Shown one piece after another: positions 24,165-24,697 of a stretch of 64,000 bases of DNA. The DNA comes from Eledone cirrhosa (taxonomy: Eukaryota): the NCBI GenBank assembly GCA_964016885.1, contig OZ024748.1:26970001-27034000 (forward strand), written 5' to 3'. The notes beneath the pieces were generated by a model. The model saw only the letters and a list, made by a program, of their open reading frames with translations. It made no database searches and was not told the origin of the DNA. The stretch's first letter is position 1. Every line of letters starts with the position of its first letter. The position numbers were made by a program, and so were the translations under genes.

Positions 24165-24697
24165 TACATACTACTGTACGTCTGTATACATATATGTATG
24201 TACGTATACATACTTATATTTAAGTAACAGCCGTACTAAGAGTGAGAAATGAAATTTCGTTTCATTTTTCCGTTTATCATTTTCGGTTACCCGGCCGATT
24301 AACTCACTCGATATGCAAATTAGACTGCTCAGCCGTTAATATGCATAAGGAAAGTATATACTTTCAGACGTTCAATCATCTGGCAGGAAGGTATACGTTG
24401 CTGATGATAGCTAATAAGCTTGAAACTAGTACAGCGTTCCTTTGTCAGTGTTGAACAAATGAGCAACGATGGTTGCTAGACACTGTACGGCTTAATTCGG
24501 GATGTTTGTTTACAAACACACCGAGCATTATAATAAATGTTCGGTGAATCCATACGTACATATATATATATATGTGTGCATGTATGTATATATATATAAA
24601 TATATACATACTACTGTACGTCTGTATACATACTTATATTTAAGTAACAGCCGTACTAAGAGTGAGAAATGAAATTTCGTTTCATTTTTTCCGTTTA
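24165..24697 (+). mobile_element. Terminally redundant ~440-bp retrozyme-like element with minimal hammerhead (24395-24437)
   Basis: tacatactactgtacgtctgtatacata at 24165 and 24605. Hammerhead acgttg-CTGATGA-tagct aata agctt-GAAA-ctag-TA-cagcgt. (TA)n on both flanks. Confidence 0.88.

Follow-up and report, generated by a model that had tools for sequence, protein, structure and literature searches.

What kind of element is the hammerhead-bearing repeat that recurs in the 64-kb window (the whole stretch of 64,000 nucleotides analysed here), and what moves it? An earlier note, made from the letters of this DNA, had described a terminally redundant element of about 440 bp, kept by selection on ribozyme function and reverse transcribed from a circular or multimeric RNA. 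We consider it probable that this repeat, referred to as family A, is a non-autonomous non-LTR retrozyme, likely spread by the RT/GIY-YIG protein of a Penelope-like element (PLE) of the same genome.

The window contains three full-length copies and one partial copy of a unit of ~430 nt with a type I hammerhead. Sequence comparison bears out as real the copies at 15258-15674 (-), 15675-15799 (+, partial), 24165-24697 (+) and 54007-54423 (-). The 24-kb copy is 1.2 units long, as had been proposed, since its first ~93 nt recur after 440 nt. It is 5'-truncated, with a 5' edge that grades into (TA)n from ~24127 on, and it stops at the more distal (end B, ~24697) of two fixed 3' ends, the other (end A) lying at ~24639-24641; (TA)n target tracts flank it on the left (23957-24164) and on the right (24698-24757). 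The proposed unit of ~440 bp holds for the spacing in this copy, because its internal (TA)n is longer, but the usual unit measures 420-434 nt. Unit size is set by the variable length of an internal TA/TG-rich segment (24545-24639), which is predicted to form a long hairpin, and a 'tail' of ~56 nt between the two fixed ends (24640-24697) contains a further hairpin (24666-24688). The copy at 15258-15674 (-) is ~1.04 units long, is continued at end A by a long (TA)n tract, has its hammerhead core at 15499 (CUGAAGA) and carries a 20-nt deletion just 5' of stem I. An inverted partial arm stands head-to-head with it, stops after GAAAC and has no cleavage site; this plus-strand copy, previously placed at 15672-15809, is present, but its true extent is 15675-15799, and 15802-15961 is the 3' end of an autonomous PLE. 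The copy at 54007-54423 (-), of ~0.95 unit, stops at end B and belongs to a subfamily with an A-U pair in stem I (core at 54324, predicted cut after 54294). Other (TA)n tracts at the copies span 14430-15257, 15962-16005 and 54424-54588. Apart from microsatellite frames, the window copies contain no ORF of 100 aa, and no PLE-like translation (RT + GIY-YIG ORF) was found at them.

Other repeats and coding pieces occur in the window. Another hammerhead-like repeat, with a long stem II, lies at 14190-14360 (both strands) and 20927-21031, with cores at 14269 (-), 14348 (+) and 21006 (-) and a head-to-head pair beside (TA)n, and isolated CTGANGA..GAAAC motifs are found at 10475 (-) and 16801 (-). 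An abundant SINE-like repeat of ~190 bp (8408-8751, 13695-13879, 23624-23813, 56751-56946 and 60156-60366) is separate from the retrozyme and also lies beside (TA)n tracts. HSP70-like coding pieces occupy several frames at 31910-34604 (+). RTE-like LINE copies, in which the RT is followed by a PHD-finger-like domain, are located at 51754-53874 (-), 44853-46528 (+), 41857-43506 and 39374-40322; the window RT ORF was rejected as a partner of the retrozyme, being that of an RTE-like RT+PHD LINE with no common end.

The hammerhead predicted in the 24-kb copy is of type I and extends from 24383 to 24441 (+), with a cut after 24431. The GUA triplet ending at that position, named in the earlier note as the cleavage site, is present in the sequence, and cleavage there is predicted only. 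Stem I consists of a distal part (AGG/CCT), an internal loop (UAU/U) and a proximal part (ACGUUG/CAGCGU); the core (CUGAUGA..GAAA) is combined with a stem II (AGCU-AAUA-AGCU) standing on a U.U pair and with a palindromic stem III (ACUAGU). Each full window copy reads acg(t/a)tg CTGANGA tagct aata agctt GAAAC TA GTA ca(g/t)cgt. An Rfam scan of the window at the gathering score gave 0 matches and the 61-nt motif, taken by itself, has a fold no more stable than that of its shuffles (z -0.92), so that the case for a hammerhead rests on comparison. The monomer as a whole is strongly self-paired (folding z -7.2, and -6.0 without the TA-rich part), and a hammerhead-competent circle lies 1.4 kcal/mol above the predicted circular minimum. 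We infer ribozyme activity; the U.U pair at the base of stem II and the 2-bp stem III predict that a monomer would be weakly active, and the palindrome of this stem III implies that cleavage would take place as a dimer. Palindromic 2-bp stems III have been linked to dimeric cleavage (PMC4209133), and the axolotl HHR_Amex2, which resembles family A in the same U.U pair at the stem II base, is cleaved better as a dimer (PMC7229834).

Family A is abundant. The exact 31-nt core has 10,697 matches in the 3.0-Gb genome (5591 and 5106 by strand) and the reversed core, used as a control, has 0 matches genome-wide, which shows a repeat rather than chance; a 35-place pattern located elsewhere in the unit has 12,455 exact matches. 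Units are found on both strands, as singles, tandems (arrays of 2-6) and inversions, with a GC content of 36% and a tandem spacing of 420-434 nt in most arrays. They are closer to each other within arrays than between arrays (median of 7 versus 25 mismatches in 191 nt). Units alternate exactly in two arrays (ABAB in L092, ABCAB in L027), which fits copying round a dimer or trimer (an oligomeric circle), but genomic duplication could give the same higher-order periodicity. In one run of DNA reads, variants of at least 10% occur only at tolerated hammerhead sites (24398, 24405, 24415 and 24434); this run may be the assembly's own source and was given no weight. Two other organisms yielded 12 and 10 related contigs.

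Is the ribozyme under selection? The earlier note had pointed to a compensatory change in stem I, which is acgttg/cagcgt in the copies at 24.4 and 15.5 kb but acgatg/catcgt in the one at 54.3 kb. The double substitution is real, and among 84 exact-core copies pairing is kept in 80, as five pair types (U.G 45, A-U 22, G.U 9, C-G 3 and U-A 1, with 4 copies unpaired). The A-U pair, however, is present in almost all copies that stand closest to the 54-kb one, which makes the change a subfamily mark of one or few inherited events. Core position 7 does vary in the window as had been stated (T in the 24401 core, A in the 15499 core, C in the 54324 and 15774 cores), but it is weak evidence of selection rather than proof, as C is the norm (81 of the 84 copies, inside a CpG) and T partly reflects CpG decay. 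Symmetric CpG decay predicts parity of U7 and the mirror change G8A; genome-wide, U7 has 527 matches and G8A 217, so that roughly 40% of U7 is CpG decay, and the excess suggests that the tolerated variant alone was re-amplified. Among 129 copies not picked on the core, private changes affect 1.27% of core and 1.49% of other columns, and shared variants are found in 0 of 11 core columns versus 14 of 92 others, a difference that is not significant alone. Inserted copies decay neutrally, and selection is visible only between source lineages. The proposal of selection on the ribozyme therefore holds at the level of lineages, where the fold is kept, but not for single copies, which decay at background.

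The best evidence for such selection is a sister family, B (L212-L249 and L259-L265), which was found via its tail hairpin and not via the ribozyme. Its units of 463-466 nt are 62% identical to family A outside the hammerhead, and inside it all 11 of the 11 core bases are identical and stems I and II carry compensatory changes, with a canonical G-C under stem II and a GUC triplet. When nine hand-picked rows are compared (six from A, two from B and one from a 310-bp array, the last picked for its hammerhead), both partners have changed in 11 of 16 pairs and pairing holds in 93.8% of cells, while slid controls reach at most 2 pairs. Family B is young and forms arrays that count about 30 units (C1:5.738-5.752 Mb).

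Families A and B have a motif in common, ATGCAAAT, with 24,345 genome matches; in the 24-kb copy it forms part of a nearly invariant stretch (ATGCAAAT-TAG.CTGC.CA, 24313-24331, +) in a predicted stem. We take this motif to be the 'octamer', and newt satellite 2 reportedly has an snRNA-type internal promoter. For family A such a promoter built on ATGCAAAT is not supported by two results: the motif is found in 0 of 15 U1/U2 upstream regions, and a promoter matrix derived from nine of these regions detects no element pair in family A (pair score p 0.73). The U1 and U2 upstream regions (L266-L299), in which the octamer was not found, have in common, around -250, a distal element resembling TTACCTCCCTT and, around -57, a proximal TCAGT. 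The U1/U2 arrays mark the genome as that of an animal.

A second retrozyme family is present in the window at 46764-51229, as 14.4 units of 310 bp, all compared units being identical. This array contains a head-to-head inversion (48818/48819) and its 3' ends are of two kinds, separated by about 36 nt and each lying in (TA)n; it looks like one very recent rolling insertion. Its unit bears a type I hammerhead with palindromic ACGCGT and is 73% identical over 81 nt to the hammerhead region of a PLE locus (L169). The 3' strand of its stem I, AGATTACTTCCCTTG (48894-48908), resembles the distal U1/U2 element (19.6 bits, a score reached by 0 of 100 shuffles), and no proximal element follows it in the unit.

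The informative part of the case for family A is the PLE fingerprint at its ends. These were mapped at the first exact-core matches along contig C1 (70 loci; 64 loci and 108 segments after six overlapping loci and one edge segment had been dropped), on a natural dimer reference whose r positions are numbered from the cut site. Two fixed sites 56 nt apart hold 92 of the 108 3' ends, 46 of them at r210-226 and 46 at r260-278; 16 lie elsewhere, one of which (L051) arose artificially where the reference was joined. A run of (TA)n of 10 nt or more follows 72 of the 92 fixed ends versus 5 of the 16 others, and the unit itself reads TAT or TATAT at both fixed sites, which amounts to 2-5 nt of TA microhomology. 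Target-site duplications (TSDs) cannot be read inside (TA)n. Family B uses the same two 3' ends (n=27, 12 near r227 and 15 near r301). The 5' ends, on the other hand, are uniform along the unit (KS p 0.29), with only 2 of 108 near the cut site. Head-to-head inversions occur in 30 of the 64 loci, with arms of varying length whose outer ends are both the same 3' termini. Segments exceed one unit (430 nt) in 49 cases out of 108 and two units (860 nt) in seven. As this sample had been picked on the ribozyme, a second one was picked outside it, from 30 matches located 93 nt downstream of the cut site. The cut site is read through in 23 of them (seven of the 23 coming from two arrays), and seven stop before it, three of these at r7-r17, where there may be a minor 5' stop.

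Thus, the template extends beyond a cleaved monomer, as the earlier note had supposed, but its expectation of circularly permuted end points was wrong, the 3' ends being fixed. That note had also regarded fixed ends with TIRs or TSDs, and a core mutating at background rate, as marks of a DNA transposon. The 3' ends are indeed fixed, but the 5' ends are random and the inverted arms variable; single copies do show background decay of the core, but a PLE-mobilised retroelement predicts the same. Fixed 3' ends together with neutral core decay are the outcome of a PLE-mobilised retroelement, not of a DNA transposon, and two fixed 3' ends, 5' truncation and inverted arms are PLE hallmarks. PLE insertions have been described as partial tandems that are truncated at the 5' side, bear an inverted 5' copy and optionally a tail of 30-40 bp, and favour microsatellites (PMC8557442), and the tail has been traced to two internal RT start sites, with AT-rich targets (PMC11167929). 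The proposed class, that of a hammerhead retroelement, is borne out.

Autonomous PLEs are present in the genome. Of 10,597 GIY-YIG candidates, 150 were scored and 50 loci read; open PLE frames of 938 and 1096 aa were found, the former passing the GIY-YIG cut-off with an RVT_1 score just under its own. One autonomous PLE, family D, contributes the 3' end at 15802-15961 (+), with a hammerhead-like motif at 15830 and a terminus in (TA)n. It adjoins the inverted arm of family A directly (junction 15799/15802, no (TA)n spacer), so that the order along the locus is (TA)n, A(-) starting from end A, inversion, partial A(+), 160 nt of family D, (TA)n. Family D elements measure 2.5 kb or more, and their frames, of RT and of C-terminal endonuclease-like type, have no Pfam match; the family aligns to a 726-aa frame which in turn aligns to the 938-aa PLE frame, and in the nearest atlas clusters some of the members bear HTH_animal, RVT_1 and GIY-YIG. 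Similar junctions are found elsewhere: in L304 family A, in the same sense, directly abuts the point at which D is 5'-truncated (1 of 29 other D loci), and in L204 the direct A-D junction is inverted (1 of 30 matches in one sample). In addition, one 5' flank at L058 joins a relative of the 310-bp family. Three further candidates (L078, L124 and L126) were rejected as chimeras, their neighbours being separated from the unit by (AT)n. The A-D junctions were probably produced by template switches of one enzyme; they show that PLE machinery is accessible to the retrozyme, but do not tell which PLE is mainly responsible. Family D sequence has no similarity to family A, and no pLTR similarity to the family A unit was detected in the 50 GIY-YIG loci, so that no one PLE is singled out as the mobiliser.

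Family D itself (window 15802-15961; L330-L338) has a hammerhead-like motif with a U.U at the stem II base and a palindromic stem III; its 3' ends lie at two positions, some 65 nt from each other, and it has inverted arms. A U.U pair is also found at the hammerhead stem II base of the autonomous PLE loci L164, L165, L166, L169, L170, L172 and L173, and its occurrence across several PLE families suggests a lineage-wide variant.

The following cycle would account for these observations. Tandem copies would be transcribed, and neighbouring hammerheads would pair via the palindromic stem III and cut after GUA, releasing monomers and oligomers which, on the precedent of newt, axolotl and mussel, may be ligated into circles. 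A protein, presumably that of a PLE, would then introduce a nick in (TA)n DNA and begin reverse transcription within the retrozyme RNA, at either of two points some 220 and 276 nt from the cut site on its 3' side, where the DNA shows the fixed ends, the (TA)n targets and the microhomology. Synthesis would pass the cut site, exceed one unit and stop at random, as seen in the DNA, often with a flip into an inverted arm or a switch to another PLE-type RNA, as the observed junctions suggest. The inserted copies would subsequently decay neutrally. We regard the genomic evidence for PLE mobilisation of family A as good. Against the proposed cycle stand the small number of D junctions (those of L304 and L204, with D at 0 of the 108 5' flanks of the main sample), the report that eight of nine Xenopus retrozyme dimers stayed uncleaved in vitro and one was cleaved (bioRxiv 10.64898/2026.07.22.740005), and the finding that hammerhead cleavage is dispensable for PLE insertion in vitro (PMC11167929).

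The same PLE mobiliser might instead copy an uncleaved linear read-through of tandem copies, without circles, the hammerhead being weak, protein-dependent or a pLTR-derived passenger. [quoted passage not shown] Against it count the core identity and compensatory stems kept between families 62% alike, the excess of U7 over G8A and the perfect higher-order repeats, and circles are known for mussel, coral and axolotl retrozymes (PMC7229834); we therefore consider it rather unlikely. The copies could also be mere 5'-truncated pLTR fragments of an unsampled autonomous PLE, given that all the end features are PLE features and that the GIY-YIG search reached 50 loci by way of 150 scored candidates. 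Yet units follow each other head to tail in arrays of 2-6 without an ORF between them, not one of 160 loci of family A, each covering about 3-7 kb, runs into a PLE ORF via shared sequence, and PLE fragments lie nearby in only five of these 160, the closest (L078) being set apart by (AT)8, which leaves this explanation little probability.

An origin outside PLEs appears less plausible still. A Helentron/DINE-1-like rolling-circle element or a TIR MITE, judged by the usual features of such elements, might be suggested by one fixed end with a subterminal hairpin, by the internal microsatellite and the tandem arrays, and by the inverted loci, which resemble TIRs. But the inverted arms are variable, with the same 3' termini at both outer ends, and 34 of 64 loci have no inversion; there are two alternative 3' ends and random 5' ends, the hammerhead is conserved, and fusions to PLE exist. 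End mapping largely refutes a DNA element, and we give it very little credence. As RTE-type RT ORFs are found in the window (51754-53874, - and 45327-46040, +), family A might be a SINE-like passenger of the abundant RTE-type LINE of the genome. This is the least credible proposal: the two have no 3' end in common, the window LINE copies end in (GAT)n-type tails and have no similarity to the unit, and two internal 3' ends with head-to-head arms are PLE traits.

The reading of family A as a PLE-mobilised retrozyme can be extended, tentatively and with some doubt, to families A, B and 310-bp together. They may be lineage-wide circular-RNA parasites of several PLE clades, in which a conserved tail-hairpin RNA signal would set two RT starts and the enzyme would roll round monomer, dimer or trimer circles, swapping retrozyme and PLE templates within one insertion. 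If true, this would be direct genomic proof of the PLE rolling-circle model, and it would map a cis-signal for PLE reverse transcription without pLTR homology. The mobility of animal retrozymes has so far been a hypothesis in which PLEs are a 'strong candidate' (PMC7229834), and the earlier PLE link consisted of co-occurrence and pLTR similarity (bioRxiv 10.64898/2026.07.22.740005). The thousands of family A insertions form a natural record, showing two fixed start sites, inversions and PLE fusions, and make the mobility model directly testable, with a 430-nt RNA, two predicted RT starts that are kept in the 62%-identical family B, and candidate proteins encoded by the long open PLE frames of this genome. 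Our search, made mainly among papers free of subscription, found no published account of family A or of retrozyme tails, inversions or PLE chimeras; the supplementary lists of invertebrate hammerhead repeats of PMC7229834 and PMC4209133 may include family A.

Non-LTR retrozymes have been defined, with circles shown in coral, mussel and axolotl, the metazoan representatives being those of coral and Mytilus, axolotl Rtz_331/Rtz_353 and newt satellite 2 (Cervera & de la Pena 2020, PMC7229834). Like them, family A is a non-coding tandem or dispersed unit of 150-450 bp, with one type I hammerhead with full core per unit, a GC content below 45%, thousands of copies, a highly self-paired monomer with a predicted accessible ribozyme, and autonomous PLEs in the same genome. 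Unlike them, it is slightly longer than the 170-400 nt stated for invertebrates (PMC7229834), consists mostly of 5'-truncated insertions of 0.5-1.5 units in (TA)n and is known from DNA alone; its fixed ends, tail and inversions are not among the retrozyme traits given in the available part of PMC7229834. On every feature compared, family A is by its sequence a non-LTR retrozyme, cleavage and circles being predicted only.

Family A also has what is expected of a non-autonomous PLE, namely fixed 3' ends with an optional tail, 5' truncation, an inverted 5' arm and microsatellite targets. It shares with EN+ PLEs (Penelope/Poseidon, Neptune; Anolis PAc, PMC11167929) the two internal 3' ends and optional tail, the AT-rich or microsatellite targets, the 5' truncation, partial tandems and inverted 5' arm, and a type I hammerhead with palindromic stem III, but it has no ORF, and its tail (56 nt, and about 70 nt in family B) is longer than their 30-40 nt. 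Its ends lie 220 and 276 nt after the cut and coincide with a TA microhomology of 2-5 nt, while PAc initiates in vitro with no homology (PMC11167929). Vertebrate retrozymes have been linked to pLTRs (Li, Clavereau & Pollet 2026, bioRxiv 10.64898/2026.07.22.740005), and such non-autonomous PLE derivatives, like Chlamys elements such as MRC1 (PMC8557442), resemble family A in their head-to-tail pLTR-like units and in likely borrowing PLE enzymes. They are similar to an autonomous pLTR or 3' end, while family A shows no such similarity in 50 loci, and its link to PLEs rests on insertion anatomy and chimeric junctions. Plant LTR retrozymes are likewise hammerhead-bearing and non-autonomous, with a proposed passage through circular RNA (PMC4918200), but they have type III hammerheads in LTRs, a PBS/PPT and 4-bp TSDs (according to bioRxiv 10.64898/2026.07.22.740005), none of which were seen in family A. 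The class to which family A belongs, that of the retrozymes, is thus already known, and its insertion scars point unusually clearly to its likely mobiliser.
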